Below are positions 2,624 through 26,104 of a DNA stretch of 64,000 nucleotides, in pieces. The notes beneath the pieces are model-generated. The model made no database searches. It was not told the origin of the DNA and was given only the letters and a program-made list of their open reading frames with translations. This DNA is from Bacillota bacterium (GTDB taxonomy: Bacteria; Bacillota; Clostridia; Christensenellales; CAG-138): assembly GCA_023435025.1 (NCBI GenBank), contig JAEYSE010000093.1:10073-74072 (forward strand). Direction: 5' to 3'. The position numbers and the translations under genes are program-made. Every line of letters begins with the position of its first letter. Position 1 is the first letter of the stretch.

Positions 2624-3041
2624 TCGATAATCCTTCTTTTTAAAATACTGATGACTGTAAAAGATAAATCTGTTCAGGGAGCGTACAAGCAGCCCATTGT
2701 TTCATCAAAGCAACGAATCTTGATATCAGCATACCGCCAAGACTTTCTTCTTGTCAATCCTATCAGGATACCGCAGCTTATTCAAAAAAAATAGCGCGTC
2801 TGCAACTTCCAATTACTTTTTTTGTAGAAATTTGAAAAACAATTTATTTTAAGAATAATCTGAGAACTTTTTTGCCAATTTAGCTGTACGGAACTAAATA
2901 GAGGAAAAAATAAAACCTAAAAAAGTCCACCCTAGGACTGATCTGTGACCGGCCTGGTTTATGATTTGTAAAAGTGGACATACATGTTACGGGCCGGCCC
3001 TGTTGCGCCGGCCAATTCCAGCGTAAGGGGTGCATAGCGGG

Positions 3042-6000
3042 ATGAAGAAACAAAGCAAGAAAACATTGGCTCTTTTCTTGGCTATTTTGCTGGCTGTGGG
3101 GTTGTTCCCCACCGCGGGTTTCGCGGCGGAGGGGGACGAGTCTACCACGCCTTCACCTGTAGAAACACCCACTGCAACTCTTCCGCCGGAAACTCCCGGG
3201 CCTTCTATAACGCCGGTGCCATCCATGTCAGCGGAGCCGTCTATAACGCCTGACCCCAGTGTGACACCCGAGCCCACCGAGACGCCTGTTGTAACCGAGA
3301 CGCCGGTGCCGACAGAGACGCCGGTGCCGACGGAAACGCCGGTTGATGTTTCCGCGCTTACCGGGAAAGATCTGTACCGGTATTTGATTACGCTCGGGGA
3401 AGACGAGCTTAAGGCGGCGCTTTCCTATTTAACGCAGGCACAGGCCGATTCACTCAACGGCATTATGACGCAAGAGCAGGCTCTTGCGTGGTTTGGAATA
3501 GAGCCATTTGTTCCCTTGGAGTTGGGGGCAGGGTTTGTTCCTTTCTTAGCAATGAGAACACAATCTCTGGACAATGACGATCTGGTGACGGACAAGAGTG
3601 CTGTTTACCAAACAGACGATACCGTGGATATTACCCTGTCGGCATATGCAAAAGGTGTTCTCACCAAGATCGGCAAGCCTGCGGATATCGTGCTGGTACT
3701 GGACCAGTCCACCAGCATGGGGAGTATGAGCGGGACATTCGGTTATTCGTACACAAATATTTATAATTGGCAAGGGAGTGGCTCTGGGGATAACAGCAAC
3801 TATGTGAATATAGGAGGGGAATATCGCCTGACGCGTAGGCAGGGAAGTTCCTCCCCCTATACATATCAGTATCAGGCGACTTCGGGCAGTTGGACCGGCG
3901 CGGTGCCGTTTACGTTCAAGAACTCGCCGACGGATACGACCCCTGGCAGGCTGCAATTGTTAAGACGAAACTCAATGTATCGTATCGACGCGCTGATTGA
4001 TGCGGTTACAGACTTTGTTCAGGAAGTGCGCTCAAAAACAACAACCGAAATGGATTTTAATATTTCGATTGTGGGCTTTAATGCGTCTGCACGTTATCTC
4101 ACCGGCACCAACGCCTCTGATACGCTGCTAAGCGCTACCGACACCCGGATTGATACGGCAATCGCCAATCTCAATAGCCTGGCCAATTATACCCGTCAAG
4201 ACCTGGGTCTGGATCTTGCCAACGACGTATTTGATACAGATTTTTCGGAAGATCGCAACCGTATCGTCATACTGTTCACGGACGGCGAGCCTTACTCCGG
4301 CGGAGGTGGCGTTACCAACAACGACATTATTGAGGACGCGCTTACCTTTGCGCGCGATCTGAAGAATAACAAAGGGACGTCGATATTCACCATTGGTATC
4401 GGCTCATCCTCTCTGGACCCCGGCACACTTCCGGTAGAGGGCGCGACGGATCAGAATACGTTCTTGCATTCCGTTTCATCGAACTATCCTGTTTCGACGT
4501 TTGAGACAGCGACAACGACAACATATTCGAGAGTAACCTCTAACGCCAACGGTTTGAATACCCGTACCCAGTACTATATCTTTGACAGTTATAACGGAAC
4601 GGCCCCGAACACACCCGAAGGCACGCCCATTGCACTTACGTATCGAGATTTAAGCGGCAACCAAAATGACGGTTGGTACTATGAGTCCGGATCCAATTGG
4701 GTACGCGTGTACTATGCCCAAAACAGTAACATTCAAAATAAAGGCAGCTCCAGTTATCATTTCTGGACGGCCGCCACAAATACCGTAAGCGGCATCATCC
4801 CCGGCCTGCGCAATCCTGCGGAAGACGCGGACGGTGATCCGATGGAGTTTTACCACACGGCCGACGATGCCGAAGAGCTTAGCGAAGTATTTCTGGCTGT
4901 GCAAGAAAGCCTCAGCGGTGGCTATGAGAGCATCACGGTCAAGGATTTCATGATGCCTCAGTTTGAAAACGTGACCGGCATCACCGCAAGGATTGGTACG
5001 ACCGCAATTGCCACATCCCTGATCAGCTATAATGCTAACACCAGAATGGTCAGCGTAGGGCCGATCAGGCTTCCCGCTGTTCAGATGAACGGCAGCGTAC
5101 CTGCCGATGGCGAACTTGCTGCCAAGCAGCTGGTCATTACGTTTACCGCCGATGTGAAGGATGATTTTATTGGCGGTAACGATGTGTTGACCAACGCCGG
5201 AAATTCCGGTATATACGGCTCGGACGGCGATCCAATCGAGTACTTCAACGAGCCTGTGGTCAACATCCCGTTGGACTATGACCTGTTTGATCTGCAGGAT
5301 CAGCACGTGTATCTTGGGGACGGGGCGTCCATCAGCGACTTCTTCGTAACAAACAGCTACGAGATCGACGATAATCCGTTCCAGTACGACGGCAAGAACA
5401 ACGGATATGTCAATATCGTCTATACCGTTAATAATGCAGTTGGCGCCACTATCGGCACCTATACCGTGGACGCAGGAGAACTGACAGGAGACTTCGAACC
5501 GGGATATTCCAACACGCTGACAAACCTTACGGCGGATACCTGGTACACCATTACCGCCAGAATCTCGCCCAGCGAAACCGGCGACTTGGCTAACGGCCCT
5601 CTTGCAGTACCGATCACCTCGGCGGGCGGGAATGAGAAAGCGAACATATATGTCTACAAGCCCGTAGTTACAACGCAGGATGTGGCGGTGTACCTGACAA
5701 AGAACCCCACCGACGCGGAGCTTACGGACAATGCGATTGTCTCTGTAGCCTGGATGCACGACACAACGAACGCGGAAGACGCAACTTTGACAGAGACCAC
5801 CGCTCCTGACCTTGATTATACATTTACGTATGCCATTCCTGCCACCCCCGGTTACCTGACGGATACGACGGCTGTGAATATCACGGGTATCGCCACCCAA
5901 CGCGGCAATCCCGCATCCACCACCGCTTCCCTCTCAGGCGCAGGCTTGACCGGGCTGGTTTCCCCCTTCAACGTGCATGTTCTAAAGCCCATCATCAAGT

Positions 6001-6707
6001 GCTTGGACAACACCATGTTCGTGGGCGACCCTGCCATTTCCTGGAGCACATACCTTGGCAGCTTCATAAAGAGCTGGTCTACAAAGCCCGATAATGCGGC
6101 GCTCATAGGCAGCGAACCTGCTGCGGTGAGCCTTGAAATCGATTTGCCCACGCCCGCACCTGCCGGCGCTTCTGGAACAGGCTTTGACCCCATTGCGGAC
6201 GGTGCTCATGGCCTGAAGGTGAAGGTGAAGGTGAACACCAGTTATGTCACCCCATATTCCACCATTCAGAACGATACCACAACCGTGAGCGAAAGCCGCC
6301 ATTTCACAATCACGGTGAATTCCGGCCAGCTCACGATTACCAAAAATGTCGCAACCACCGGCCCGGATGCGGTGAAACCAGGTGAGACATTCCTGTTCAC
6401 AATCACGGTAGACCGGGAAGGCGAAGCGAATGACTATACATTCTATGAGGTCATAGAGGGCAACGGCAGCAAGACCATTACCGGTCTTCCCAGAGGCACC
6501 TATACGGTGACGGAGGATACCAATTGGTCCTGGCGTTACAATACGGCTTCCATCCCTGATTGGGGCAGCGGCGGCAGCACGATCACACCCACGAACAGGT
6601 CGATTGCCTGCAGGGTATCCAACTCCGGCAGGACGCCCTTCTGGCTCTCAGGCGACGATGCAGTCGTGAACAAATTCTGGCCGTTTAAACCGCAGCCTGC
6701 GGCATAA
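3042..6707 (+). CDS. large secreted vWA-domain protein (putative adhesin) with C-terminal Ig/Cna-B-like domains and no cell-wall sorting signal
   Basis: ATG at 3042 (MKKQSKKTLALFLAILLAV...FAAEG, a Sec signal) lies 9 nt after TAAGGGGTG. A Pro/Thr-rich linker follows. vWA/MIDAS signature IVLVLDQSTSMGS, then ILFTDGEP and SIFTIGIG. The C-terminal segment TITKNV...GTYTVTEDTNWSWRY resembles pilin-type Ig folds. The ORF ends ...FKPQPAA without LPXTG. Confidence 0.85.
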   Translation: MKKQSKKTLALFLAILLAVGLFPTAGFAAEGDESTTPSPVETPTATLPPETPGPSITPVPSMSAEPSITPDPSVTPEPTETPVVTETPVPTETPVPTETPVDVSALTGKDLYRYLITLGEDELKAALSYLTQAQADSLNGIMTQEQALAWFGIEPFVPLELGAGFVPFLAMRTQSLDNDDLVTDKSAVYQTDDTVDITLSAYAKGVLTKIGKPADIVLVLDQSTSMGSMSGTFGYSYTNIYNWQGSGSGDNSNYVNIGGEYRLTRRQGSSSPYTYQYQATSGSWTGAVPFTFKNSPTDTTPGRLQLLRRNSMYRIDALIDAVTDFVQEVRSKTTTEMDFNISIVGFNASARYLTGTNASDTLLSATDTRIDTAIANLNSLANYTRQDLGLDLANDVFDTDFSEDRNRIVILFTDGEPYSGGGGVTNNDIIEDALTFARDLKNNKGTSIFTIGIGSSSLDPGTLPVEGATDQNTFLHSVSSNYPVSTFETATTTTYSRVTSNANGLNTRTQYYIFDSYNGTAPNTPEGTPIALTYRDLSGNQNDGWYYESGSNWVRVYYAQNSNIQNKGSSSYHFWTAATNTVSGIIPGLRNPAEDADGDPMEFYHTADDAEELSEVFLAVQESLSGGYESITVKDFMMPQFENVTGITARIGTTAIATSLISYNANTRMVSVGPIRLPAVQMNGSVPADGELAAKQLVITFTADVKDDFIGGNDVLTNAGNSGIYGSDGDPIEYFNEPVVNIPLDYDLFDLQDQHVYLGDGASISDFFVTNSYEIDDNPFQYDGKNNGYVNIVYTVNNAVGATIGTYTVDAGELTGDFEPGYSNTLTNLTADTWYTITARISPSETGDLANGPLAVPITSAGGNEKANIYVYKPVVTTQDVAVYLTKNPTDAELTDNAIVSVAWMHDTTNAEDATLTETTAPDLDYTFTYAIPATPGYLTDTTAVNITGIATQRGNPASTTASLSGAGLTGLVSPFNVHVLKPIIKCLDNTMFVGDPAISWSTYLGSFIKSWSTKPDNAALIGSEPAAVSLEIDLPTPAPAGASGTGFDPIADGAHGLKVKVKVNTSYVTPYSTIQNDTTTVSESRHFTITVNSGQLTITKNVATTGPDAVKPGETFLFTITVDREGEANDYTFYEVIEGNGSKTITGLPRGTYTVTEDTNWSWRYNTASIPDWGSGGSTITPTNRSIACRVSNSGRTPFWLSGDDAVVNKFWPFKPQPAA
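3277..3348 (+). repeat. four tandem 18-nt coding repeats (T-E-T-P-V-P/V units) in the Pro/Thr linker
   Basis: accgagacgcctgttgta / accgagacgccggtgccg / acagagacgccggtgccg / acggaaacgccggttgat, read directly from the sequence. Confidence 0.8.
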
Positions 6708-6731
6708 CGCAATAACGGAGGAACACGCTCC

Positions 6732-7262
6732 TTGCCAAAGACGATAAAAGCGATCTGGAACGCGCTGACCACAATCCTTGTGGCGGCGGCAGTACTGCTG
6801 GCGGTGTTGCTGGCGGGTGTACGCATCATTGAACTTACGCCGTACGCGGTGCTTTCGGGCTCCATGGAACCGGCCTACCACGTAGGCAGCCTTATCTACG
6901 TGCAGAAGGCGGTGCCGGAGACGATACAGGTGGGCGACCCTATCACATTCCTGCTCAATGAGGACCTATTGGTAGCCACCCACCGCGTGATAGAAATTGA
7001 TGCAGCCAACCAGCACTTTTATACCAAGGGCGATGCCAACAATGCGCCCGACGCCATGCCGGTGCACTACAACAACCTGCTGGGCAAGCCCGTGTTCACC
7101 ATCCCGCAACTTGGGTATGTATCCAGCTTCCTAAGTACCAGCAAAGGCATGATACTTGCTGGAACAGCGGCAATCGTGCTGCTGATACTGGTGTTCGTAC
7201 CGGATCTGCTGGCTGCAGCGGACCGGAAGGATGCAAAAGCAAAACATGCACAAAGACCCTGA
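6732..7262 (+). CDS. sipW: signal peptidase I, SipW (ER/archaeal) type
   Basis: TTG start 8 nt after ACGGAGGAA. N-terminal TM segment, catalytic-Ser box LSGSMEP, then ATHRV and TKGDAN boxes and a C-terminal TM segment. This is the architecture typical of SipW-type rather than LepB-type peptidases. Confidence 0.85.
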   Translation: MPKTIKAIWNALTTILVAAAVLLAVLLAGVRIIELTPYAVLSGSMEPAYHVGSLIYVQKAVPETIQVGDPITFLLNEDLLVATHRVIEIDAANQHFYTKGDANNAPDAMPVHYNNLLGKPVFTIPQLGYVSSFLSTSKGMILAGTAAIVLLILVFVPDLLAAADRKDAKAKHAQRP

Positions 7263-7281
7263 TTAACCGGAGGTATGAGCC

Positions 7282-7848
7282 ATGAAGGAATTCATCCGCA
7301 CACACAAAAGAGTTGTTTTGCTCTGCCTTGCGGCGGTGCTGGTTGTAGCCGCTGCCATTGGCGGTACTTTGGCGTGGCTGACCTCCACCCCAAACAGCAT
7401 TACCAATACGTTTGTGCCGGGCGAAGTGCCGAATCTAGTTACGGAAGATCCCTTTGACGGCACAACGAAATCCAACGTGCGCGTGCAGAACACCGGCAAT
7501 GTGGATGCCTACATCCGCGTAGCGCTTGTGCCCATCTGGCGTAATGTCAGCGACAATAACGGCGCGGGTATTGCGGCAACATTGTCTCAACTTACATTCA
7601 CCGGCTTCCCAGGCACAAAATGGACGGAGGGCACGGATGGATACTATTACTATGAAGACCGTGTCACGCCGGGTGCTTCCACAGAGGCACTGATTGGCAC
7701 GGCTAAGGTAAACGTCACACACGAGGGCAAATACTTGGAGCTGCAGATACTCTCGCAGTCCATACAGGCGGACGGCATGGGTGCGGAAAGCGCGCAAGAA
7801 GCATTCGCGATCGGTCTTGATGCCACCACCGAAAACCCCGGCGCGTAA
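7282..7848 (+). CDS. TasA/BsaA-family protein with SipW-cognate signal peptide (paralogue 1)
   Basis: GGAGGT-7nt-ATG. N-terminus ...AAAIGGTLAWLTSTPNSITNTFVPGEV matches the SipW-dependent signal pattern (G-T-L-A-[YW]-[FL]-T ... N-T-F). 188 aa. Confidence 0.8.
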   Translation: MKEFIRTHKRVVLLCLAAVLVVAAAIGGTLAWLTSTPNSITNTFVPGEVPNLVTEDPFDGTTKSNVRVQNTGNVDAYIRVALVPIWRNVSDNNGAGIAATLSQLTFTGFPGTKWTEGTDGYYYYEDRVTPGASTEALIGTAKVNVTHEGKYLELQILSQSIQADGMGAESAQEAFAIGLDATTENPGA

Positions 7849-7923
7849 CCTCTGGATGCCATAGCCACAATTGGTGGGCTTTATATAGAAAAAGAAAGAT
7901 GATATAAAAACGGAGGAAAGAAA

Positions 7924-8505
7924 ATGAAGAAGAAGGCATTATTGTTGGTTCTAGCAGCTGTGGTGCTTGTGATTGGAAGCGTAGCAGGTACCTTGGCATA
8001 TTTGACAGCTACTTCCGGCACTGTTACCAATACGTTTACTGTAGGTGCTGTCGGCTTGGATTTATGGGAGCATCAGCTGAATAGTGACGGAGCTCTTGGT
8101 ACAAATAAAGTTACCAAAAATACATATCATCTTGTCCCGGGCGGAACCTACCTTAAGGATCCAACGGTAGTGGTTAAGGGCAAAAGCGAACCCTGCGTCG
8201 TATTTGTTCGCGTGGAAAACGGTTTATCTGCCATTCTGGATGGCTTCACGCTCAATAACGGTTGGGTGCAACCAGATGCGGCTCACTCTGATTTGTATAA
8301 GTATTCTACAGTTGTACAAAAAGCCGACACCGATCAAGAGTTGGTAGTGTTTGGTAATTTCAAAGTTCTGAAAAATGTCACCGACCTGTCCAACTACAGT
8401 TCAGCAGAAATCAAGGTGACTGCGTTTGCCATCCAGAGCCAAAATGTAGACGATGCTACCGCTCTTTCAGAGGCCATTGCCAAGTTGTATCCCTCCGGTA
8501 CGTAA
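7924..8505 (+). CDS. TasA/BsaA-family protein with SipW-cognate signal peptide (paralogue 2)
   Basis: ACGGAGGAAAGAAA-ATG. N-terminus ...SVAGTLAYLTATSGTVTNTFTVGAVGLDLWE. 193 aa. Third codon positions are visibly more A/T-rich than in neighbouring genes. Confidence 0.8.
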   Translation: MKKKALLLVLAAVVLVIGSVAGTLAYLTATSGTVTNTFTVGAVGLDLWEHQLNSDGALGTNKVTKNTYHLVPGGTYLKDPTVVVKGKSEPCVVFVRVENGLSAILDGFTLNNGWVQPDAAHSDLYKYSTVVQKADTDQELVVFGNFKVLKNVTDLSNYSSAEIKVTAFAIQSQNVDDATALSEAIAKLYPSGT

Positions 8506-8579
8506 TTGGCGTATAGCTGACTGAATGAACTCTGTATAATACCGACAAGGCCGAGTTTCGGCAGAACGGAGAAATAGCA

Positions 8580-9227
8580 ATGAAGAAGAAGATACTCGTC
8601 ATATCTCTGATTGTGTCTCTCGTGGCGATCGCGGCGTTGGGCGCGACGCTGGCCTACTTCACGGATACCAGCACCGTGGATAACACATTCACCGTGGGCA
8701 ATGTGAAGATTGACCTGAAAGAAATCATTGGCTACGAAAACGACGAGCCTGTATATGGCGAGCCTGGTGAGAATGGCAAGGTTGATTTCGGCACCATGCT
8801 GCCGGGCAGTTACAAAACCAAAGCGCCGTTTATTGAAAATATCGGTTCCAACGCGGCCTATGTGCAGCTTAAGGTAACCATTAATAACGCCGACGCGTTC
8901 GATCAGATGTTCCGTGATTACAATGCTAGCCATGAAGTCAAATTGAGCATTGCCGACTTCATTAAAGGCATTGATAGCAGCTGGACTTATGCGGGCAACG
9001 TGAAAAATGCCGATAATACAAGAACATATACCTACACGTACAATGGCCCGCTTGCGGCCGGTGCGGCAACCTCACCTCTTTTTGCCGGGATAGAAATTCC
9101 GACGTTTATAGATGGTGAGTTTGCCAATGCAGAAATCGAAGATTTCGCTATCAGCATAGTGGCTGAAGCCATACAAGCTGATAATTTCGATAATGCTGCT
9201 GCTGCATACGCAGAACTGAACAAGTAG
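8580..9227 (+). CDS. TasA/camelysin-family protein with SipW-cognate signal peptide (paralogue 3)
   Basis: N-terminus ...ALGATLAYFTDTSTVDNTFTVGNVKIDLKE is the classical TasA/CalY leader plus mature N-terminus. LPGSYKTKAPFIENIGS is a beta-sandwich motif. 215 aa. Confidence 0.85.
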   Translation: MKKKILVISLIVSLVAIAALGATLAYFTDTSTVDNTFTVGNVKIDLKEIIGYENDEPVYGEPGENGKVDFGTMLPGSYKTKAPFIENIGSNAAYVQLKVTINNADAFDQMFRDYNASHEVKLSIADFIKGIDSSWTYAGNVKNADNTRTYTYTYNGPLAAGAATSPLFAGIEIPTFIDGEFANAEIEDFAISIVAEAIQADNFDNAAAAYAELNK

Positions 9228-9349
9228 TAAGCATTCGCTAAACCTTTAGGCCTTATGCCGGGGCGCATGCCCTGCGCCCCGCAACCTTGCCGTATTTTTT
9301 CGAACCATCCATCCGCTCGTATGCGGACGAAATAGGGGGATGACAAATT

Positions 9350-10111
9350 ATGAAACATACCAACAGCCTGAAAAGGATAGGCACAGTGGCGCTAAGTGTA
9401 TTGCTGTTGCTCGCGTTTGCGACGACAGCCTATGCGGCGGAATCCACCGCTACTTTCAGAGGGCGCACCTCCCTGTTTGGCTACGTCCCTGACGATGGTT
9501 CGGCGACCGGCCTGTTCAACAATCTGCAGGGGCTTATGCCCGGCGGCACGTATACGCAGAAAATCACGGTGGATAATACCTCCGGTTCGCGTGTGGATAT
9601 CTACTTGCGCGGCGAGCAGATCCAGCGTCCGGCCTCCCGGCAGGCGGGCTATGCATATGATCTTTTAGATCTTATCACCTTTAAGCTAAAGGATGGCAGC
9701 ACCATCCTCGCCGAAGGCAAGCTTTCGGATATCTGGCCCGAAACCGGCGGTACCAATACCGGAGACGGCAGGTTCATCCGCTTGGGTCGTTTCTACAGGG
9801 GCGATTATAAGGTGCTCATGCTTGAGCTTACCGTACCCGAGGAGCTAAACAACGATTATCAGGATGCTACCGGCAAAGTTCGGTGGGTATTTCAGGCCGA
9901 TGTGTATACCCGCGATGACGATGACGACGACGATGATGATGACGATATCCCGCTTGGCCCGCCGGTGATCATCATCAATGATGGCGAGCAAATCCCGCTT
10001 GCGCCCGGCACGGGGGACGATGCGAACATCTACCTCTGGGGTGGACTGTTCGTAATATTTGCCGTACTGCTGGCCGTGCTCCTTGTACACAAGCGCGGCA
10101 GGAAGGCGTAG
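9350..10111 (+). CDS. cell-wall-anchored protein with TasA-like beta-sandwich signature, poly-Asp tract and sortase sorting signal
   Basis: Ordinary Sec signal peptide (LLLLAFATTAYA/AEST). LMPGGTYTQKITVDNTSGSRVDIYL resembles the TasA/camelysin PG-x-x-x...N-x-G motif. A D11 run is present. The C-terminus is IPLAPGTG + hydrophobic helix + HKRGRKA, an xPxTG-type sorting signal. Confidence 0.75.
   Translation: MKHTNSLKRIGTVALSVLLLLAFATTAYAAESTATFRGRTSLFGYVPDDGSATGLFNNLQGLMPGGTYTQKITVDNTSGSRVDIYLRGEQIQRPASRQAGYAYDLLDLITFKLKDGSTILAEGKLSDIWPETGGTNTGDGRFIRLGRFYRGDYKVLMLELTVPEELNNDYQDATGKVRWVFQADVYTRDDDDDDDDDDDIPLGPPVIIINDGEQIPLAPGTGDDANIYLWGGLFVIFAVLLAVLLVHKRGRKA
9914..9946 (+). repeat. 33-nt GAT/GAC run encoding eleven consecutive Asp
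   Basis: gatgacgatgacgacgacgatgatgatgacgat, read directly. It translates to D11, immediately before IPLGPP. Confidence 0.9.
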
Positions 10112-10127
10112 CTGAACCAGCAAACAG

Positions 10128-10157
10128 AAAGGCGGCCGTAAAGCCGCCTTTGTTTTT
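10128..10157 (+). terminator. rho-independent terminator between anchor-protein gene and sortase gene
   Basis: aaaggcggc-cgtaaa-gccgccttt followed by gTTTTT, 17 nt after the TAG at 10109-10111. Confidence 0.7.
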
Positions 10158-10192
10158 ACCCGTGGGCATCCCCTCTTACAAGGTGGTCAGAA

Positions 10193-10987
10193 ATGCAAAA
10201 GAAGCGAAACCCGAAAACGGGACTTATTAATTTACTAATCATTCTGTGCGCCGCCGCCATGATCATTTCCGGCGTGCTGTTTGCGCTGCCCCTCATAGAA
10301 TACCGCGCCGGGGATACGTTATATTTGGAGCTTTCCCGCAGCGCCGTTACAACGCCCCCTCCGGTATCCGCCGCTGCTATCGCACCGGAGCAGTCCGCAG
10401 CGCCTACTCCGCTGCCCATGCTGAAGCTTGATTACGAGGCGTTGCACGCGGAGAACAATGAGTTTTGCGCCTGGATATATTCTTCCGGCACCGTGATCAA
10501 CTACCCCGTGGTGCAGGGCGGCAACAACAGCTATTATCTCAACCACATGTTCAACAAGCAACGCAACTCCATGGGCACGCTGTTCGTGGATGCAGAGAAC
10601 GCGCCGGTGTTTGGGGACCAGAACACAATCATATACGGCCACCACATGAAGAACGGCTCCATGTTTGCCTCGCTTGTGAACTACAAGGAACAGACCTATT
10701 ACAATGTTCACCCGGAATTGCTGCTGTTTACCCCTTCCGCTGCCTATAAGCTGGAACTGTTTGCAGCCTATATTACGGATGGCGTCGTTACTAACGACGT
10801 ATACAAAAAAAGCTTCGATACCGAAGCTCAGTTTCTCTCCTTCATTGAATACGCCCGCGCGGCTTCCGATTTTAAAAGCGAGGTGGAAGTGGCAGCTAAT
10901 GACCGCATTGTGACGCTTTCCACCTGCACCTATGAGTATGACGACGCGCGCTATGTGGTGCTGGGCAAGCTGGCACCAATAGAGTAA
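10193..10987 (+). CDS. srtB: class B sortase
   Basis: AAGGTGG-6nt-ATG. N-terminal TM segment. SrtB-type N-terminal block (NNEFCAWIYSSGTVINYPVVQGGNNSYYLNHMF), NTIIYGHHMKNGSMF, and the catalytic TLSTC motif. Confidence 0.85.
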   Translation: MQKKRNPKTGLINLLIILCAAAMIISGVLFALPLIEYRAGDTLYLELSRSAVTTPPPVSAAAIAPEQSAAPTPLPMLKLDYEALHAENNEFCAWIYSSGTVINYPVVQGGNNSYYLNHMFNKQRNSMGTLFVDAENAPVFGDQNTIIYGHHMKNGSMFASLVNYKEQTYYNVHPELLLFTPSAAYKLELFAAYITDGVVTNDVYKKSFDTEAQFLSFIEYARAASDFKSEVEVAANDRIVTLSTCTYEYDDARYVVLGKLAPIE

Positions 10988-10991: not shown

Positions 10992-11513
10992 TTAATTCCC
11001 CATCTCCATTTCTTCCGCCTGCACGTCCACATATGTGACGGGGCTGCCGCAATATTCAATAAAGCGCAGCAGATCCGCCGTTTTTAGCACAATGGAAGCC
11101 GTGTTCACGTTGGGGTGCACGATGATATTTTCCCAATCCGCCACATCCCGGTCCAGCAAAACATGGACTTTATGCGCCGTATCGTTGAGAAGACCCATCG
11201 GCGTGACCGAGCCGGGCGTTAGCCCCAAAGTTTGCATCAATTGCTCCGGTGTTCCAAAACACAGGCGAGAGACGCCCAATGCTCGGCTCACCCTGCCGGT
11301 TTGAAAGGGCTTATCCCCCACCACCAGCAAGAGATAAAACTGAGTCCCCTGACGGTTGGTTAAAAACAGATTTTTGCAATGGGCCGCATTTTTTCCGGCG
11401 TCGAACACAGCGCAGTCCGCCATAGTCATCGCCGGGCGATGTGCAAAGCGCTCGTAGGGGATATGAAGCTTATGCAGCGCCTCGTACACGCACAATTCTT
11501 CCTGATCCTGCAA
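10992..11513 (-). CDS. YbaK/ProX-type aminoacyl-tRNA deacylase (prolyl-tRNA editing domain protein)
   Basis: 173-aa ORF. HCKNLFL...FYLLLVVGDKP...LGLTPGSVTPMGLLND is the pattern typical of YbaK/EbsC/ProX. Confidence 0.75.
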   Translation of the reverse strand: MQDQEELCVYEALHKLHIPYERFAHRPAMTMADCAVFDAGKNAAHCKNLFLTNRQGTQFYLLLVVGDKPFQTGRVSRALGVSRLCFGTPEQLMQTLGLTPGSVTPMGLLNDTAHKVHVLLDRDVADWENIIVHPNVNTASIVLKTADLLRFIEYCGSPVTYVDVQAEEMEMGN

Positions 11514-17678: not shown

Positions 17679-17759
17679 TTTCATCACCTCAATCATAGTG
17701 TGCGCACATCCCGCAGAGGACATTCGGAGTTTCAGGCCGTGTTCTTGAATTTCTGTACA

Positions 17760-18395
17760 TTATTCTAAAAACGTTTCATAAATTTCCGACATTTGCTTCA
17801 TGATCGAAAGGTTATGCAAAATGCCATGCTGCATTTCCAGCGAATGATCCGCGCCTTCAATGAAAACCAGTTCGCATGCTGCGTCGGCCCTGACCGCGCC
17901 AATGCAGGCTTCCGGGAATGTATCATCCGCAGTACCCATCACGGCTACGGATTTTGTTTGCAGCATGAAGGGAAGTGCGCGCTCCACCGGCGTTAAAAAC
18001 AAATGCCTGATGTCTGGGTGTTCAAGCAATGTGCCCACCATGCCCGCTAGTACCGTGCCCAGGCTTTTGCTGATCAAATAAAGCCTTTTATAGCCCTGCG
18101 CGCCCGCCGCTTGAAGTGTTTCAAGAAGTTCTTCGCAAAACGGCGCGATGTCTTCGGCCGTAAACGACTTTCCCGCCTTAAAAAACCCGTACTCCAGAGC
18201 CAGAACGTCAAACCTTTTGTCCCTTGCCGCCATACCGGCATAATAGAGCAGGGGCAGTTGCACGGTGTAGCCACGGCCGGGAAACAGCACGACAAGCGCC
18301 TCCGGCTTCTGCTGCTGCTGATAGAGTTCGTGGCTGACTTTGCACCCGAATATCGAATCCCGTTCCAGCGCTCTCGGTCTCATACCTTCCCCCAT
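17760..18395 (-). CDS. alpha/beta hydrolase
   Basis: 211 aa. VVLFPGRGY..., nucleophile-elbow-like LISKSLGT, and a C-terminal GADHS motif. Confidence 0.7.
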   Translation of the reverse strand: MGEGMRPRALERDSIFGCKVSHELYQQQQKPEALVVLFPGRGYTVQLPLLYYAGMAARDKRFDVLALEYGFFKAGKSFTAEDIAPFCEELLETLQAAGAQGYKRLYLISKSLGTVLAGMVGTLLEHPDIRHLFLTPVERALPFMLQTKSVAVMGTADDTFPEACIGAVRADAACELVFIEGADHSLEMQHGILHNLSIMKQMSEIYETFLE

Positions 18396-18437
18396 TCCTT
18401 TTTCTTACAATACCGCAAGTTCTGCTTTTGCGCCAGA

Positions 18438-18470
18438 AGGAAATAAAGCAGGCAGGCGTGTTCTGCCTGC
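18438..18470 (-). terminator. rho-independent terminator closing the tad operon
   Basis: On the minus strand, gcaggcag-aacacgc-ctgcctgc followed by TTTATTT. It starts about 20 nt after the stop at 18493. Confidence 0.75.
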
Positions 18471-18492
18471 CCAATGGATTTTTTGCAACTGT

Positions 18493-19044
18493 TTATTGTC
18501 GGCTGTTATCCCGCACAAAGGGCATCAACTTGTCCCGGGGTACGGAAAGCGGCTTGGAGGAAACAGGCTTTGTCCCTTCTTCCTGCGTGAAACGGCGGGA
18601 AAGCTGTTCGAATGCAAGAAAATGCTTCGGCTTTTCACTTTCTCGGATGTTCAGTTCCAATTGGCGCTGCGCTTCGCTGTGCTTTTCCCGTTCTTCCGCA
18701 AGTTCCGTTTGCAGCGCCGCCAGCTTGTGTAAGAGCGCGTCTGTCTCCTGGCGGTGACGCGCAACAAGTTTTTTGACAATGGGCCGGAGTTTTTCCTTCA
18801 ACGCTTCTTCATCCATAGTAGCCATGGCGGGTTGTACAGAGTTTTCCCGTGTGGAACTTAGCGTCTCTTTGAGCGCGCGGTTTTCTGCCTGAAGCATGCG
18901 CAGTTCCTCACGCAGCGCGTCCGTTTCCCTGTATAGAACAGTACGCAAATCCAGAAGTGTTTGCGCCTGCTCAGCGGCTATGGCAACAAGCTCAGATCTT
19001 CGGCAGCCGCTAAAATCCTTGCGCTCATCCGATTGCCTGACCAT
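18493..19044 (-). CDS. coiled-coil protein of unknown function, last gene of the tad operon
   Basis: GGGGAGG-7nt-ATG at 19044 (MVRQSDERKD...). Long heptad-like Glu/Leu/Arg-rich stretches (LREELRMLQAENRALKETL; LLHKLAALQTELAEEREKH). Confidence 0.5.
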   Translation of the reverse strand: MVRQSDERKDFSGCRRSELVAIAAEQAQTLLDLRTVLYRETDALREELRMLQAENRALKETLSSTRENSVQPAMATMDEEALKEKLRPIVKKLVARHRQETDALLHKLAALQTELAEEREKHSEAQRQLELNIRESEKPKHFLAFEQLSRRFTQEEGTKPVSSKPLSVPRDKLMPFVRDNSRQ

Positions 19045-19387
19045 TCTCCAGCCTCCCCACTTCCACAATCCGAACCTGCTCGGAGCAGCCAAGCTGCTTC
19101 CAGCGGTGTGCGGGCATCTCCAGTACGCTTGCGCAGCCATGGATATAAAAGCCCATACGTCCGGGCTCCATGGCTTCCTCCACGGAAAGCACGCGCCCCA
19201 GCTTATCCAAGTACACCACGTCGATTGGCTCGCGCATGAAATAGGTGTGAACCTGCGAACACGGATGCAGCAGCAGGCCTTCTTTGATATCCCGCTCGCC
19301 CATCAGCCCTTTGAGGCGATGGAAAAACCGATCCGCCACGCGGATACGCGCAATCGCCTTGCCGTCAGAATACAGAATCGCGTATTT
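19025..19387 (-). CDS. DUF192 domain protein
   Basis: MKYAILYSDGKAIARIRVADRFFHRLKGLMGE...LLLHPCSQVHTYFMREPIDVVYLD...VLEMPA is the typical DUF192/COG1430 pattern. Confidence 0.75.
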   Translation of the reverse strand, partial: KYAILYSDGKAIARIRVADRFFHRLKGLMGERDIKEGLLLHPCSQVHTYFMREPIDVVYLDKLGRVLSVEEAMEPGRMGFYIHGCASVLEMPAHRWKQLGCSEQVRIVEVGRLENGQAIG

Positions 19388-19445
19388 CATAACTCCACCT
19401 GTCCAATCCACTTTTGTACATCCCTTGGGGTTCCGTTTGCCACAA

Positions 19446-20360
19446 TTATTTAAACGTATCTATCACGCGTATGACGGTAGGGCCCAGCAATATGATGAAT
19501 ATTACAGGGAATATGAACCCGACCATCGGAAGCAGCATTTTTACGGACGCCTTCATGCCCTTTTCCTGCGCGTACTGCTTTCTAGAAAGCCGCAGCTGCT
19601 CCGCCTGGGTCTTCAACACTTGCTTAATGGGCGTACCCATCTGCTCGGACTGTACCACGGCGGAAGCCAAAGACTTTAGCTCCGCAACGTCATTGCGTTC
19701 GCCAAGCTCGGTCAATGCCACGCGGCGGGGTTTCCCCATCTGAATCTCCATGGCGGTAACTGTCATTTCCTCTTTGAGCGCGCCCGTGAATTTGTCCAAA
19801 GCACGCCGTAAAGCAAGATCAAAGCTCAACCCTGCGTCAATGCTGACGGTTAGAATATCGATCATATCCGGAAGCTGGTTTTTGATGGAACCTTGCCTTG
19901 AGCGTATCTGGAAGCGCATATAGTACACCGGTATCAAAAGCCCCAGCATCAGGGCTGCAAGCATCAGCAGCAACTTTACGTATGCTTCAAGCTCCGTGGA
20001 GCGCAGCAAAAGCGCCGTAGTTAAAAACAGCCCCAATGCGACCAGCACGCGTACCACTAAGAAACCGGAAACGCCGATATACATGCCCGCCATACGCAAC
20101 TGCCGTTCCATTTTACTGTTGCCGGCGCCCTCTTTTTTCGGCTTTATCAGGCGGTTGAACGCGTGGCGAAACTGCTTTAACAGCGGTACGATAAACCGTT
20201 CATGAAAGTCGGCGTTCAGTTCGTCAAGAAGCGCCTTATCCGTCTCCACAATGCGCTTGACACGCCGCTCTTTCGCACCCAATATCCTGCGGGGGCGGCT
20301 GAACAGCAGCAGGACAAATACAAACGCGGACATCGCGCTGGTGATGACAAGAAACTGCAT
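19446..20360 (-). CDS. tadC: Tad pilus inner-membrane platform protein (T2SS-F family)
   Basis: 304 aa. N-terminal TM segment plus a T2SSF-type domain (QLPDMIDILTVSIDAGLSFDLALRRA...) and C-terminal TM segments. Confidence 0.85.
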   Translation of the reverse strand: MQFLVITSAMSAFVFVLLLFSRPRRILGAKERRVKRIVETDKALLDELNADFHERFIVPLLKQFRHAFNRLIKPKKEGAGNSKMERQLRMAGMYIGVSGFLVVRVLVALGLFLTTALLLRSTELEAYVKLLLMLAALMLGLLIPVYYMRFQIRSRQGSIKNQLPDMIDILTVSIDAGLSFDLALRRALDKFTGALKEEMTVTAMEIQMGKPRRVALTELGERNDVAELKSLASAVVQSEQMGTPIKQVLKTQAEQLRLSRKQYAQEKGMKASVKMLLPMVGFIFPVIFIILLGPTVIRVIDTFK

Positions 20361-20381
20361 GCCATATTCCCCCTTCCGTCT

Positions 20382-21305
20382 CTAATATTTAACCGATACG
20401 ATCTTGCGTATGAGCATGTACCCGATCGTTTCCATCACCGCGGCGACGATGAGCATGATATGCCCTTCCTGCCGCTGAAACAAAAGTTCCATATAGTTGG
20501 GATTCAGAAGCAACAGCATCACGGCAAGGAACACCGGCATCAACCCGATCACCATGCCGGATATGCGGCCCGTGGAGGTGATGGTGCGTACCTCCTGCTT
20601 GACGCGGATACGATCGGTAACCGTCTGGGCGATATTGTCCAGTACCGCTGAAAGATTGCCGCCCACCTGCTGAGAAATGAGTATTGCCGTTACCATCAGT
20701 TTGACATCCGAGCTGGGCACGCGGCGCGAAAGGTTAAATAACGCCCGCTCCGTGGTGCTGCCCAACTGCAGCTCCCGCATGACGCGGCCAAACTCATTTG
20801 CGACTGGCTCTGCCATTTGATCCGCCACGGTCTGCATGCCCTGCTGGAATGTCAGGCCGCTTTTTAAACAGTTGCTGACGGTGGTAATGGCCTCGGGCAG
20901 CTGCTTTTCAAATGCAATCAGTCGTTTATGGCGGCTGTGCCGTACGTAAAACGGCGGCAACGCGAGGCCAATGCCGGTAAGCGTAACGGACACAAACATA
21001 TGTGCCCCCATCAGCGCGGAAACGGCGGGCGGGATAAAGGAGAGCACGACCCATATGAGCAAAAACTCCTCCGCCCGCATGGGAACGCCCGCGCTTGCAA
21101 GCTGATCCACCAATACGGTAGAGATGCGGATGGGCACCTTCTTTTCCGCACGCATGCGCTCACGGGAGAGAGGGGCTTTTTCGCCGGAAAGTTTTTCAAT
21201 ACGATCCCCGCTTCTGAGCGCATCCCGGTATACCCTGCGCAGGAGTATCACACAGAGCGTAAACATCAGGCCCGCCGCGCAGAGCGTCAAAAGTATGCGC
21301 TGCAT
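20382..21305 (-). CDS. tadB: Tad pilus inner-membrane platform protein (T2SS-F family)
   Basis: 307 aa. QLPEAITTVSNCLKSGLTFQQGMQTVADQ... is a T2SSF domain flanked by TM segments. Confidence 0.85.
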   Translation of the reverse strand: MQRILLTLCAAGLMFTLCVILLRRVYRDALRSGDRIEKLSGEKAPLSRERMRAEKKVPIRISTVLVDQLASAGVPMRAEEFLLIWVVLSFIPPAVSALMGAHMFVSVTLTGIGLALPPFYVRHSRHKRLIAFEKQLPEAITTVSNCLKSGLTFQQGMQTVADQMAEPVANEFGRVMRELQLGSTTERALFNLSRRVPSSDVKLMVTAILISQQVGGNLSAVLDNIAQTVTDRIRVKQEVRTITSTGRISGMVIGLMPVFLAVMLLLLNPNYMELLFQRQEGHIMLIVAAVMETIGYMLIRKIVSVKY

Positions 21306-21332
21306 GTCCTTCCCCTTCCCGTTGTTAAAAGC

Positions 21333-22667
21333 TTACTGAAACCATTCATCATACACCGGAACGCCGTTGCTGCGGATTTTGGATACGCATTTCGGGTATA
21401 CCCCGGTGCTTTTAAAACGCCCGTTAAAGCGCCCCTGCCCGTCCGTGGAGCCGTCGGTTTCAAACACAAATATGTCCTGCATGCTGACGATATCACCTTC
21501 CATGCCAGTGATCTCGGTAATGCTGACTATGCGGCGGGAACCGTCCCGCAGGCGGCTTTGCTGCACGATAATATCGAGTGCGGAGGCAATCTGGCTGCGG
21601 ATGGCATAAAGCGGCATATCTACCCCCGCCATCATCACCATGGTTTCGATACGGGAGATCATATCCCGCGGGGAGTTGGCATGGCCGGTGGTGAGTGAGC
21701 CATCGTGGCCGGTGTTCATGGCCTGGAGCATATCCAACGCCTCGCCAGAACGGACTTCGCCGACTATAATACGGTCCGGCCTCATGCGCAGCGTGTTTTT
21801 GACTAAATCCCGTATAGTGATTTCCCCCCGCCCCTCCAGGTTGGCCGGGCGGCTTTCAAGCGTAATGCAGTGCTGCTGCTTTAATTGCAGCTCCGCAGCG
21901 TCTTCTATGGTGACAATGCGCTGATCCGAAGGGATGTACCCGGAAAGCACGTTTAGAAGCGTCGTCTTGCCGCTGCCCGTTCCGCCTGCCACCATCATAT
22001 TGAGGTTGCCCTTGACGCAAGCCTCCAAGAAGCTGGCCATACGCGGGGTCAGCGAGCCGAAATTGATGAGATCGTGCACGGTAAATGGCGTCTTTGAAAA
22101 CTTGCGGATGGTGATGACCGGCCCCACAAGCGAAAGCGGGGGGATGATGATATTGACGCGCGAGCCGTCCTTTAAACGCGCGTCCACCATGGGGCTTGCT
22201 TCATCCACATGGCGGCCGATGGCGGAAACAATCTTTTCTACCACCTGCATCACGGCTTCCTCATCCCGGAAGCGGACGTCGGACAGCTTGATTTTGCCGC
22301 CCTGCTCTACAAATACCTGCTTGGGGCCATTGACCATGACTTCCGTAACGCCCGGGTCGTTTAAAAGCGCCTCAAGCGGCCCCAGGCCCATGACCTCGTT
22401 AAACAGCACCGTAGACAGCCGTGAACGTTCCACGCGCGTGATGGTATCCGAATATTCGGCCAGCACGTCGTCTATGACGCTTTGCACCTGCGCTGCATCC
22501 GGCTCTATGGCGCCTCCGCGCAGCCGGTCGATGACGGCAGTGCGTACGCGGTCAATGATGAGCAGGTACTGCTCCTGTTTGGTTTCCTCGGCCGTGGCGG
22601 TGACTGCCGAGCGCTCCTCGCGCGGGGCATCGTCGGTGGGCCTGTTGAGGCGGCTTTGTAAGCTCAC
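21333..22667 (-). CDS. tadA: CpaF/TadA secretion ATPase
   Basis: GTG start at 22667 (GGAGG-7nt-GTG) overlaps the tadZ stop as GTGA. Walker A GGTGSGKTT, Asp box, Walker B RIIVGEVR, His box TGHDGS. Confidence 0.9.
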   Translation of the reverse strand: MSLQSRLNRPTDDAPREERSAVTATAEETKQEQYLLIIDRVRTAVIDRLRGGAIEPDAAQVQSVIDDVLAEYSDTITRVERSRLSTVLFNEVMGLGPLEALLNDPGVTEVMVNGPKQVFVEQGGKIKLSDVRFRDEEAVMQVVEKIVSAIGRHVDEASPMVDARLKDGSRVNIIIPPLSLVGPVITIRKFSKTPFTVHDLINFGSLTPRMASFLEACVKGNLNMMVAGGTGSGKTTLLNVLSGYIPSDQRIVTIEDAAELQLKQQHCITLESRPANLEGRGEITIRDLVKNTLRMRPDRIIVGEVRSGEALDMLQAMNTGHDGSLTTGHANSPRDMISRIETMVMMAGVDMPLYAIRSQIASALDIIVQQSRLRDGSRRIVSITEITGMEGDIVSMQDIFVFETDGSTDGQGRFNGRFKSTGVYPKCVSKIRSNGVPVYDEWFQ

Positions 22668-23782
22668 CGGATCACCTCCGATGCAAGCTGGATAAGCTTC
22701 CTGCCCAGTGCGGTTCTTGGTTCCTCCAGTACCACCGGGCGGCCGATGCATTGGCACCTGTCGGCCGTTTTGTCGTCGCGCGGGAGAACATGCGCAGGCA
22801 TTACGCCCAACACCTTTTGTGCGTCCTTGATGGAAAGAAAAGCTTTATAATCCTTGTTGTACACATACCGGATCTTTTCCTGCAGCTGCAGCGAGGAAAG
22901 TACCGCCTGTGTGGTATGCGCCGCTTTGATGGAGCCGATATCCGGCTGCACCACCACAAGCACCTTGTTGGAATTTTCCATGGCGGTGATTGTGGTATCC
23001 GCGAAGTTACTTGGAAGATCGATGAATATGCAGTCAAAGAACGGACGCATGACGGAAAGCACGCTTTCCACATGCCGCGGCTCCACATATTCCCCGCTTT
23101 CGGGGGTGTTTGGGCCTGCAAGGACGCTCAGCCCGCTGTAATGCTGAACGGTAAAGCCGCGCAGCACATCCATACTGAGCGTACCGCGCTCCTGCGCAAG
23201 CTCTGCAATGGTATCCTTGGGTTGCATATCAAGGTAGAGCGCCACGTTCGCATACTCCAGGGAAAGATCGATGATGGCGGTCTTTCGCCCTGCTTTCGCG
23301 AGCGCCGCGGCCAGGTTGACGGCAAGCGTGGTCTTGCCTGTGCCGCCTTTGCCGGAATAGACGCTGATCACCTGCGTTTTTTGAATGGGCGCCGTTCCCG
23401 AAAGTCCTGCACGCACCTGCTCAAGCGCACCGGCACGGCGTACGGCATCTATGATGGCGTCTTCTCCATCCTCATAGGAAACGACCAGCCGTATGCCGGA
23501 TTTCAGCGCTTCGCGCGTAAGGGACATGGAGAGCTCCTGGGTTAAAAGCAGCAGTGCACAGCGGGGCACACTCTGGTAAATGCGCTGCGCAATATCAAGC
23601 GCGGCGGCGTTTTCATATAAAATAAGCGCGACGTCGGGCTGCAGGCCTTGGGCCTTCTGTACGCAGGAAGGCCCAAGATCGCCATAACCGACGATGACGA
23701 TATCCTCGGTGCTTAAAATCCCCTTGATGCGGTAGCGCGCATCCTTATCACTGCTGATGACAAATACCCGTAGCTGTTCCAT
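22664..23782 (-). CDS. tadZ: TadZ/CpaE-type protein (receiver-like domain fused to a MinD/ParA-like ATPase)
   Basis: N-terminal CheY-like fold (RVFVISSDKD...DVALILYE). Deviant Walker A SGKGGTGKTTLAVNLAAALA. Confidence 0.8.
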   Translation of the reverse strand: MEQLRVFVISSDKDARYRIKGILSTEDIVIVGYGDLGPSCVQKAQGLQPDVALILYENAAALDIAQRIYQSVPRCALLLLTQELSMSLTREALKSGIRLVVSYEDGEDAIIDAVRRAGALEQVRAGLSGTAPIQKTQVISVYSGKGGTGKTTLAVNLAAALAKAGRKTAIIDLSLEYANVALYLDMQPKDTIAELAQERGTLSMDVLRGFTVQHYSGLSVLAGPNTPESGEYVEPRHVESVLSVMRPFFDCIFIDLPSNFADTTITAMENSNKVLVVVQPDIGSIKAAHTTQAVLSSLQLQEKIRYVYNKDYKAFLSIKDAQKVLGVMPAHVLPRDDKTADRCQCIGRPVVLEEPRTALGRKLIQLASEVIR

Positions 23783-23792
23783 TTAAAATCTC

Positions 23793-24536: not shown

Positions 24537-24608
24537 GCATCCCCCTGCGGCTGGAAAAGCCGTTACTATCAACTTCAGTTCATAGATAGGTCTTTTGATG
24601 TGGTTCCG

Positions 24609-25001: not shown

Positions 25002-25017
25002 GGATTTCCCTCCATCC

Positions 25018-25061
25018 GCATAAAGAGAACTACTGCCGCCCGCACGCTGTGCGGGCGGCAG
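25018..25061 (-). terminator. strong hairpin (attenuator/terminator) directly after the flp pilin gene
   Basis: 13-bp perfect stem ctgccgcccgcac/gtgcgggcggcag with a 3-nt loop. On the minus strand it is followed by tagTTcTcTTTaT. It lies between flp and tadE. Confidence 0.55.
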
Positions 25062-25081
25062 CTATTTGGCATTGTCGCAAA

Positions 25082-25270: not shown

Positions 25271-25292
25271 GGTTTTTCTCCTTCTCTAAACA

Positions 25293-25946: not shown

Positions 25947-25995
25947 ATTGGGCCTCCTTAGTTGGTTTAGCCTAAGAAGCTTTTCTTTGTTTTTT

Positions 25996-26038: not shown

Positions 26039-26104
26039 TTTGTTTTTGCGCTGCATCCGTTTTTAGAGAAGGATGGCAAAGACGCAAACAAAAGCGCGGC
26101 TTCA

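Follow-up and report, generated by a model that had tools for sequence, protein, structure and literature searches.

A candidate wall-anchored TasA/BsaA-type fibre locus in a bacterium of the class Clostridia

Could a sortase attach a surface fibre covalently to the cell wall when the fibre consists of TasA-type subunits, processed by a SipW-type signal peptidase, and all are encoded in the same cluster? The question is raised by a seven-gene locus at positions 3042–10987 of a 64,000-nt stretch of DNA (the window: contig JAEYSE010000093.1, positions 10,073–74,072, from assembly GCA_023435025.1 of a Bacillota bacterium of the class Clostridia), where genes for a SipW-type signal peptidase and three TasA-family proteins stand together with those for a large von Willebrand factor A (vWA) protein, a class B sortase and a TasA-like protein that bears a sorting signal. 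The answer reached here is that the products of the locus, on balance, probably form a fibre of TasA/BsaA type, assembled by donor strands and covalently tied to the cell wall. This architecture is already described, and the window locus is a further instance of it, which extends the known picture without changing it. The fibre model of a preliminary description, made from the DNA letters alone, is partly supported: it is plausible and was largely anticipated in the literature. What is particular to the window locus is its lineage, the size and domains of the vWA protein, the Sec leader and doubled IPLxP motif of the anchor protein, a conserved gene trio and the size of an anchor family for which no model exists in Pfam.

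Seven genes and their products

Seven open reading frames (ORFs) follow each other on the + strand between 3042 and 10987 in the ORF map of the window, with gaps of 19–122 nt between genes. The preliminary description had placed the same seven genes at the same coordinates and on the same strand, which the ORF list confirms, and profile searches of each ORF upheld every gene assignment that it had made.

3042..6707, + strand: G1, vWA/MIDAS secreted adhesin, 1221 residues (Pfam VWA and DUF5979)
6300..6686, + strand: CnaB-like (DUF5979) C-terminal domain of G1, its last ~130 residues
6732..7262, + strand: G2, SipW-type (archaeal/endoplasmic reticulum-type) signal peptidase I, 176 residues (TIGR02228)
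7282..7848, + strand: G3, compact TasA-family subunit with SipW-type leader (hhalign to the G5 family)
7924..8505, + strand: G4, TasA-family subunit with SipW-type leader (leader motif, conserved residues)
8580..9227, + strand: G5, TasA-family (Peptidase_M73) subunit with SipW-type leader (TIGR04088, PF12389 family)
9350..10111, + strand: G6, predicted wall-anchored TasA-like subunit with Sec leader (sorting signal, hhalign, Foldseek)
10128..10151, + strand: intrinsic terminator hairpin of 9 bp with 6 G–C pairs, then GTTTTT, between G6 and srtB
10193..10987, + strand: G7, class B sortase (TIGR03064)

The two enzymes are assigned with ease. G2 reaches 104 bits (E = 7e-30) with TIGR02228, the model of archaeal/SipW-type signal peptidases I (cut-off 51.85), and has the Ser and His catalytic motifs in SGSMEP (residues 42–47) and THRV (83–86), as well as GDAN (100–103), in agreement with its first description as a SipW-type enzyme; it stays below the equivalog model of Bacillus SipW, NF046067 (87.7 versus 190). 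The class B sortase that had been recognized in G7 is likewise borne out by TIGR03064 (189.9 bits, cut-off 153.75) and by an intact His-Cys-Arg triad, namely the His in YGHHM (148–152), Cys245 (LSTC) and Arg253 (ARYVV). The closest solved structures to G7 are those of Clostridioides difficile SrtB, 4UX7 (3e-36) and 5GYJ (4e-36). Between G6 and G7, where a terminator had been noted, the hairpin with its T-run has an equivalent in 10 of 10 related loci, and the base changes among these preserve the pairing, which marks the hairpin as a real terminator.

The three small proteins carry the leaders GGTLAWLTS (G3), AGTLAYLTA (G4) and GATLAYFTD (G5), identical to those quoted when they were first described as paralogues with SipW-cognate leaders. 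The motif GTLA(W/Y)(L/F)T....NTF is conserved across the three families, and the SipW-cognate signal model TIGR04088 (cut-off 19) is passed by G5 (36.3), with G3 (18.8) and G4 (16.8) slightly under. Alignment of the G3 and G5 families by hhalign (99.7%) identifies them as paralogues. The link to TasA is made by G5: PF12389 (Peptidase_M73, the TasA/camelysin family) is matched by 16 of the 16 members of its family (E ≤ 0.01, best 1e-8), and membership is thus given at the family level, the window protein itself scoring 20.4 bits, slightly under the cut-off of 22.5. A profile search with this family found more than 4,000 relatives, with PF12389 precomputed in most of the best 120, and hhalign relates it at 93.9% to Bacillus subtilis TasA, the query sequence of which was checked against PDB 8AUR. 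Direct alignment of the G3 family with TasA is not significant (1%), so that its connection to TasA holds only through the G5 family, and neither G3 nor G4 has a direct Pfam match. The BsaA subfamily model of NCBIfam, TIGR04090 (cut-off 60), is not reached by G3 (35.2), G4 (13.5) or G5 (28.4). Judged by their sequences, G3–G5 are therefore TasA-family proteins related to BsaA and not members of the BsaA subfamily as NCBI defines it. Searches of the PDB gave no match for the single sequence of G5, no meaningful match for the profile of the G3 family, and for that of the G5 family a marginal best match to AbpX (E = 0.04).

A camelysin-type protease role for the TasA-family subunits was considered and rejected, the name Peptidase M73 being doubtful; the label probably stems from CalY having been misidentified as a peptidase (PMC11580942).

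Another shared feature of the three families is a trio of residues, consisting of a presumed donor-strand Asn, a Glu 13 residues further on, and a Lys that opens the next core strand. These are N42/E55/K63 in G3, N36/E49/K78 in G4 (14 orthologues) and N35/E48/K81 in G5 (invariant), and they align to A37/E50/K68 of TasA. In addition, the stretch V33-D-N35-T-F37 of G5 agrees in residues and numbering with the donor strand of BsaA, as compared with its published description. An isopeptide bond between Asn35 of one BsaA subunit and Lys74 of another, with Glu56 as catalyst, has been reported to lock the polymers (PMC11580942), and the view of the preliminary description that BsaA fibres are held non-covalently is in this respect outdated. 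By analogy, a BsaA-like isopeptide lock is possible in G3–G5.

The anchor protein and the genes that stay with it

G6 is composed of a Sec leader (residues 1–29, AYA/AE), a beta-sandwich core (~30–187), a poly-Asp run (189–199), IPLGP (200–204) and APGTG (218–222). Its tail reads D11-IPLGP-x13-IPLAPGTGD, followed by a hydrophobic stretch and then HKRGRKA (IPLAPGTGDDANIYLWGGLFVIFAVLLAVLLVHKRGRKA), so that the ordinary Sec leader and the xPxTG sorting signal attributed earlier to the fourth small protein are present together with hydrophobic segment and basic tail. No protein of the whole window other than G6 carries a sorting signal. The motif IPL[SA]PGTGD is nearly invariant in 29 homologues, and in the wider family xPxTG occurs within the last 70 residues of 223 of 270 members, mainly as PPxTGD, SPxTGD or APxTGD and rarely as LPxTG.

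The family to which G6 belongs is large. It comprises 2,929 representatives at 50% identity in an exhaustive HMMER search (E ≤ 0.001) and 962 proteins in a word-indexed search. Neither G6 nor its family is covered by Pfam, and a family of this size merits a model. Most members are 205–260 residues long; a few, of 340–670 residues, have added C-terminal sequence. The 11-residue poly-Asp run followed by the doubled IPLGP...IPLAPGTGD (window 9914–10015, residues 189–222) is kept in close homologues, and the tail has a weak, sub-threshold similarity to NCBIfam NF033073, ‘doubled motif LPXTG anchor domain’ (20.5 versus 48 bits).

Is G6 itself related to the fibre subunits? Its core aligns with the G5 family at 93.8% by hhalign (E = 1.8e-7, 111 columns), which rises to 94.5% with a deeper alignment, and with TasA itself at 65.6%. 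A core-only AlphaFold model based on the deeper alignment has a predicted local distance difference test score (pLDDT) of 76.5 and a predicted template modelling (TM) score of 0.73. When this model was compared with the PDB by Foldseek, the TasA fibre 8AUR_A came first (probability 1.00, TM score of 0.50 normalized to the query, 182 aligned columns), all remaining chains having at most 0.32 on the same normalization. This model supersedes an earlier full-length one (pLDDT 68), which gave weak jelly-roll matches and had TasA at rank 22. No meaningful match was found in the PDB with the single sequence of G6 or with the profile of its family. The sequence comparison thus supports G6 as a remote TasA relative, and the model supports a TasA-like fold without proving it; the TasA-like character given to this protein in the preliminary description is in keeping with both the alignment to the G5 family and the best structural match. 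At the positions of the presumed lock, G6 has an invariant Gln70 in place of the Lys and Ala34 (Ala or Ser in the family) in place of the donor-strand Asn, and would accordingly take no part in an Asn–Lys lock.

The second line of evidence comes from synteny. A scan with the G6 profile, using one genome per species, gave 19 loci, and look-up of distant G6 relatives added six more (L021–L026). In nine loci from separate species-level genomes (L002–L010), hosted by Oscillospiraceae, Feifaniaceae and unclassified Bacillota metagenome-assembled genomes (MAGs), the order vWA-sipW-G3-G4-(G5)-G6-terminator-srtB is kept while G6 identity is 45–59%; recurrence of this seven-gene order puts the cluster far beyond chance. 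Several of these loci also keep the flanking lipoprotein-like and YbaK-like genes. More distant loci have the rearranged order sipW-T(3–4)-adhesin-G3like-G6like, where T stands for TasA-like genes (L012, L014, L017, L021, L024 and L025), and the pair G3like-G6like is also kept in L016, L018, L019, L022, L023 and L026, in most of them along with the adhesin gene. The G3-like gene adjoins the anchor gene with 4-nt overlaps in L014 and L017–L019. In the distant loci the G3 counterpart sits between the adhesin and anchor genes, and this position makes it a candidate adaptor subunit. For the sortase gene, adjacency is found among the rearranged loci in L012, L013 and L015, and in L025 it lies ~5 kb off. 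In every related genome where it could be examined, synteny with sipW and TasA-like genes extends to the genes for sortase and anchor protein, as in the window. Two findings that would have spoken against the fibre model of the preliminary description, a G6 product with no TasA-like fold and a lack of such synteny, did not materialize.

What is preserved of the large protein in these distant loci is informative. G1 consists of a signal peptide (residues 1–29), a Pro/Thr-rich linker (30–104), the vWA domain (~212–470), an Ig-like middle part and DUF5979 (1087–1215). Its first description as a secreted 1221-residue protein with a metal ion-dependent adhesion site (MIDAS) is sustained by the match to PF00092 (VWA; 30.3, cut-off 23.8), found in 11 of 12 orthologues, and by a complete MIDAS site (D221, S223, S225, T384 and D414), invariant in the alignment of the 12. 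Invariant in the same orthologues is the K1101/E1158/N1210 triad of the C-terminal CnaB-like domain. Among distant loci, conservation of the large protein is confined to this domain: G1 residues ~1095–1212 are matched by tblastn in L012, L014, L016–L018, L021, L022, L024 and L025, and in the large proteins of L021, L022, L024 and L025 Flg_new replaces the vWA head. The conserved unit is the adhesin C-terminal domain, the G3-like gene and the G6-like gene.

Some observations concern the N-terminal part of G1. Right after the signal peptide, residues 30–104 (window 3129–3353) form a low-complexity linker rich in Pro, Thr and Glu, and after it comes a short helical segment that is conserved (consensus GEELYxYLxTL). 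A similar spacer, acidic or rich in Pro, is present in most orthologues, not always of the Pro/Thr type. An N-terminal wall-spanning spacer would be unusual in a secreted adhesin, and G1 could be held by its N-terminus.

Other observations concern individual loci. In L007 and L008, two SipW-dependent TasA-like genes (G3-like and G4-like) precede the anchor gene and in L024 there are four, so that the number of shaft paralogues ranges from two to four. The srtB gene of L005 (6692–7479) appears divided between two frames (tblastn 6701–7231 and 7219–7479; ORF of 196 residues) by a frameshift, which reflects either a pseudogene or an assembly error. L019, an Eggerthellaceae MAG (CALBGP010000021.1), has a cluster of sipW, TasA-like, G3-like and G6-like genes; its presence in an actinobacterial MAG means that this type of locus crosses phyla. 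In the motif scan, the G6-like protein of L019 showed no xPxTG. Phage-type integrase or recombinase genes adjoin two distant loci (L021, 1612–2748; L026, 6386–10845), which hints that some copies are on mobile elements.

A probable fibre tied to the wall, and what else the locus could be

In the assembly scheme proposed here, all proteins of the locus would be exported by Sec, as their leaders suggest, with G3–G5 staying tethered by their SipW-type leaders. Cleavage after GTLA by G2 would, by analogy with TasA and BsaA, free an N-terminal strand (..V-x-N-T-F..), and entry of this strand into the beta-sandwich of a neighbouring subunit would build the shaft, possibly with an Asn–Lys isopeptide lock. 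Strand complementation would also attach G6 to an end of the shaft, and G7 would cut it at Thr221-Gly222 and link it to peptidoglycan, a step suggested by the sorting signal and by the kinship with C. difficile SrtB. G6 would in this way be the basal anchoring subunit, in the role played non-covalently by TapA in Bacillus and proposed for the LPXTG-bearing BsaB. Co-polymerization of the three paralogues and the replacement of TapA by G6 are both inferred.

G1 would act as the MIDAS-dependent ligand binder, docking through its C-terminal CnaB-like domain with a G3-type subunit as adaptor. The best indication that G1 belongs to the fibre in this manner, a circumstantial one, is that the C-terminal domain and the G3-like and G6-like genes stay together while the adhesin head is swapped. 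This link is nevertheless the weakest step of the scheme. Inspection of G1 revealed neither a sorting signal nor a leader or donor strand of SipW type, and hhalign comparison with the G3 and G6 families (21% and 5%) no TasA-like or donor-strand region; a single-sequence PDB search gave no match. The earlier suggestion that the fibre displays the vWA adhesin is not supported.

Several other points also weigh against a wall-tied fibre. No sortase gene was found within the available flank of L014, L016–L019, L021, L024 or L026, and in the window and its close relatives the conserved terminator separates the anchor gene from srtB. The Foldseek E-value for the match of G6 to TasA, 5.7e-3, is above the significance line of 0.001, and its TM score is borderline. 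As for the lock, TasA has the Glu and the Lys as well but no isopeptide bond, and the Asn/Glu/Lys of G3–G5 are putative counterparts of N35/E56/K74 of BsaA, by comparison with its published description. G6 has APGTG, whereas the test peptides used for C. difficile SrtB had no Ala at the first position of the motif. Lastly, deletion of srtB in Clostridium perfringens strain 13 left BsaA polymers and pellicles unchanged (PMC7395162); strain 13 is itself devoid of the LPXTG-bearing gene (PMC7395162, PMC11580942).

Do these points call for two independent systems? One would be a SipW/TasA-like fibre that is released into the matrix together with a vWA matrix protein, like BsaA and BsaC of C. perfringens strain 13, and the other an unrelated SrtB with a small wall-anchored substrate of its own. 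The terminator, the ineffective srtB deletion and the distant loci devoid of a nearby sortase would all fit, as would the finding in C. perfringens strain 13 that BsaA oligomers are membrane-associated and not wall-linked (PMC7395162, PMC11580942). However, in all of the at least 20 loci with enough flank, including the Eggerthellaceae MAG, G6-like genes accompany sipW and TasA-like genes despite reordering; they are often translationally coupled by the 4-nt overlaps to the G3-like TasA gene, and G6 is itself a remote TasA homologue. Independence of the two systems is thus unlikely.

Another possibility is that the sortase works as a polymerase or cross-linker and joins Thr221 of G6 to a lysine of another protein of the locus, such as G1 or a TasA-like subunit, in the manner of pilin-specific sortases, and not to the wall. 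Some class B sortases polymerize pili in streptococci, and lysines are invariant in G3–G5. The CnaB-like domain of G1 points in the same direction, as does a GBS104-like tip-pilin Ig domain of Pfam, matched by three G1 orthologues (best E-value 1.3e-17). Such a role is still very unlikely: since neither the locus nor the rest of the window encodes a second protein with a sorting signal, the sortase alone could not build a polymer, and no pilin motif was identified. Moreover, the nearest characterized relative, C. difficile SrtB, has been shown to be specific for (S/P)PxTG and to anchor its substrates to peptidoglycan (PMC4155245), and the prevalence of PPxTGD, SPxTGD and APxTGD in the G6 family fits this specificity.

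Covalent fixing of TasA/BsaA fibres to the wall is explicitly speculative in the work on C. perfringens, where the strain used had lost the sorting signal, whereas the loci described here are intact examples with one sortase and one putative cognate TasA-like substrate, and would be cleaner test cases. The trio of adhesin C-terminal domain, G3-like and G6-like genes further suggests how a single type of fibre could carry varied heads in Clostridia of the gut and the environment.

A spore or developmental appendage in place of a vegetative adhesin or biofilm fibre is the most improbable of the alternatives: SipW and TasA (CotN) were first linked to spores in Bacillus, PDB 5OF1 is titled ‘Spore coat-associated protein N’ and the host lineage is Clostridia, but the immediate surroundings of the locus showed neither sporulation genes nor sigma-factor signatures, sortase anchoring targets vegetative peptidoglycan, and the proposal concerns timing and not construction, being as such compatible with a wall-tied fibre.

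A broader view can be put forward tentatively, and is rather doubtful at present. Loci of this kind may represent a distinct and widespread class of Gram-positive pili, with a TasA-type donor-strand shaft, possibly isopeptide-locked by way of the conserved Asn/Glu/Lys, a TasA-derived basal subunit of the G6 type that terminates the shaft and is fixed to peptidoglycan by SrtB, and exchangeable tips (vWA or Flg_new) mounted on a CnaB-like domain and a G3-type adaptor. The tip adhesins of such a class could resemble tip pilins of sortase-assembled pili that lost their sorting signal.

Known systems and the surroundings of the locus

The closest known counterpart is the bsa locus of C. perfringens, in which srtB lies beside sipW-bsaA-bsaB-bsaC and BsaC is a vWA protein (PMC7395162). 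In most strains there is a BsaB-like gene with LPXTG, which was lost in strain 13, and Kivimaki et al. speculate that SrtB ties the fibre to peptidoglycan via the LPXTG-bearing BsaB (PMC11580942). The same study found TasA/BsaA genes often near LPxTG proteins, signal peptidases and sortases, and took the occurrence of several paralogues per operon to suggest heteropolymers (PMC11580942). Compared with the published descriptions (PMC11580942, PMC7395162), the window locus has the gene content of a bsa-type locus. It encodes a SipW-type peptidase, a vWA protein that is secreted and several paralogues resembling TasA, one of them with a sorting signal as in most C. perfringens strains, and the gene of a class B sortase lies next to these. 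The two loci differ in several respects. In the window locus the vWA gene comes first, srtB follows last, on the same strand and after a terminator, and there are no bsaRS regulator genes. G1 has 1221 residues, contains a Pro/Thr linker and ends in the CnaB-like DUF5979 domain, whereas BsaC is of ~70 kDa. G3–G5 score under the cut-off of the BsaA subfamily. The anchor protein G6 has an ordinary Sec leader, and its motif is (A/S)PGTG after an IPLGP repeat, in contrast with the LPXTG of the BsaB-like gene.

The tapA-sipW-tasA operon of B. subtilis shares a SipW-type peptidase, TasA-family subunits and an accessory subunit proposed to nucleate or anchor the fibre. The window locus, however, has no TapA homologue and combines three shaft paralogues with a large adhesin; anchoring would here be covalent, via the sortase, and a donor-strand Asn stands where TasA has Ala37. 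A third comparison concerns the bacterial TasA-like loci of a 2026 preprint on AbpX, which have LPXTG anchors, sortases, minor subunits and tip proteins, and for which AlphaFold 3 models show strand complementation between LPXTG anchor and fibril subunit in other bacteria (10.64898/2026.01.04.697558). The modular plan is common ground with those loci: signal peptidase of their own, minor subunits beside the one that forms the fibril, and separate proteins for tip and wall anchor. Their dedicated peptidase has ten transmembrane helices, unlike the 176-residue SipW-type enzyme found here, and similarity to AbpX is marginal.

Sortase-assembled pili offer other parallels, namely tip-type adhesins with vWA/MIDAS (RrgA, GBS104 and SpaC), Ig- or CnaB-like domains with Lys-Glu-Asn triads, and a specialized basal subunit that a sortase fixes to the wall, as proposed here for G6. 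In the window locus, by contrast, shaft subunits and adhesin are without sorting signals, a class C sortase is absent, and a donor-strand shaft of TasA type is proposed. A sortase-assembled pilus was therefore rejected as a description of the locus, since G1 and G3–G5 have no sorting signal and the only sortase is of class B. With C. difficile SrtB, the closest solved sortase (3e-36), the likeness extends to xPxTGD sorting motifs. The substrates of that enzyme considered here are adhesins, cell-wall hydrolases and a 5′ nucleotidase, none of them described as TasA-like (PMC4155245, PMC4591827), whereas the window sortase lies in a fibre locus with a single putative cognate substrate.

The locus is flanked by a lipoprotein-like gene (1631–2623) and a YbaK-like gene (10992–11513), both of them conserved chromosomal neighbours. 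A promoter can be proposed upstream of G1 as a candidate only, such sites being no commoner in the region than in shuffled sequence. Control by cyclic di-GMP (c-di-GMP), as known for C. difficile SrtB substrates, was sought by an Rfam search of the locus and its leader, which detected no riboswitch or other RNA element. c-di-GMP riboswitches do occur elsewhere in the window, in a Tad/Flp (type IVc) pilus cluster on the minus strand (17700–28420). These further features are as follows.

2832..2859, + strand: candidate sigma-70-type promoter TTGAAA-16-AATAAT, ~180 nt upstream of G1, consensus match 10/12
19446–20360, minus strand: TadC, Tad/Flp cluster
20382–21305, minus strand: TadB, Tad/Flp cluster
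21333–22757, minus strand: TadA ATPase, Tad/Flp cluster
22664–23782, minus strand: ParA-like TadZ, Tad/Flp cluster
23793–24572, minus strand: RcpC/CpaB, Tad/Flp cluster
24609–25001, minus strand: TadE-like protein, 130 residues, Tad/Flp cluster
25082–25270, minus strand: Flp pilin, 62 residues, Tad/Flp cluster
25293–26123, minus strand: prepilin peptidase, Tad/Flp cluster
26781–28184, minus strand: TadG-like DUF7305 protein, Tad/Flp cluster
26105–26195, 26593–26679 and 28332–28419, minus strand: three c-di-GMP-I riboswitches (Rfam, 73–78 bits)

The Tad cluster lies ~7 kb from the fibre locus, and type IV pilus proteins were required in C. perfringens for BsaC and BsaA to be exported; the proximity of the two loci in the window may or may not be meaningful. 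Adjoining the riboswitch-controlled Tad cluster, also on the minus strand, is a gene for a diguanylate cyclase (29642–31531) in which a GGDEF domain is combined with Cache and PAS domains as sensors.

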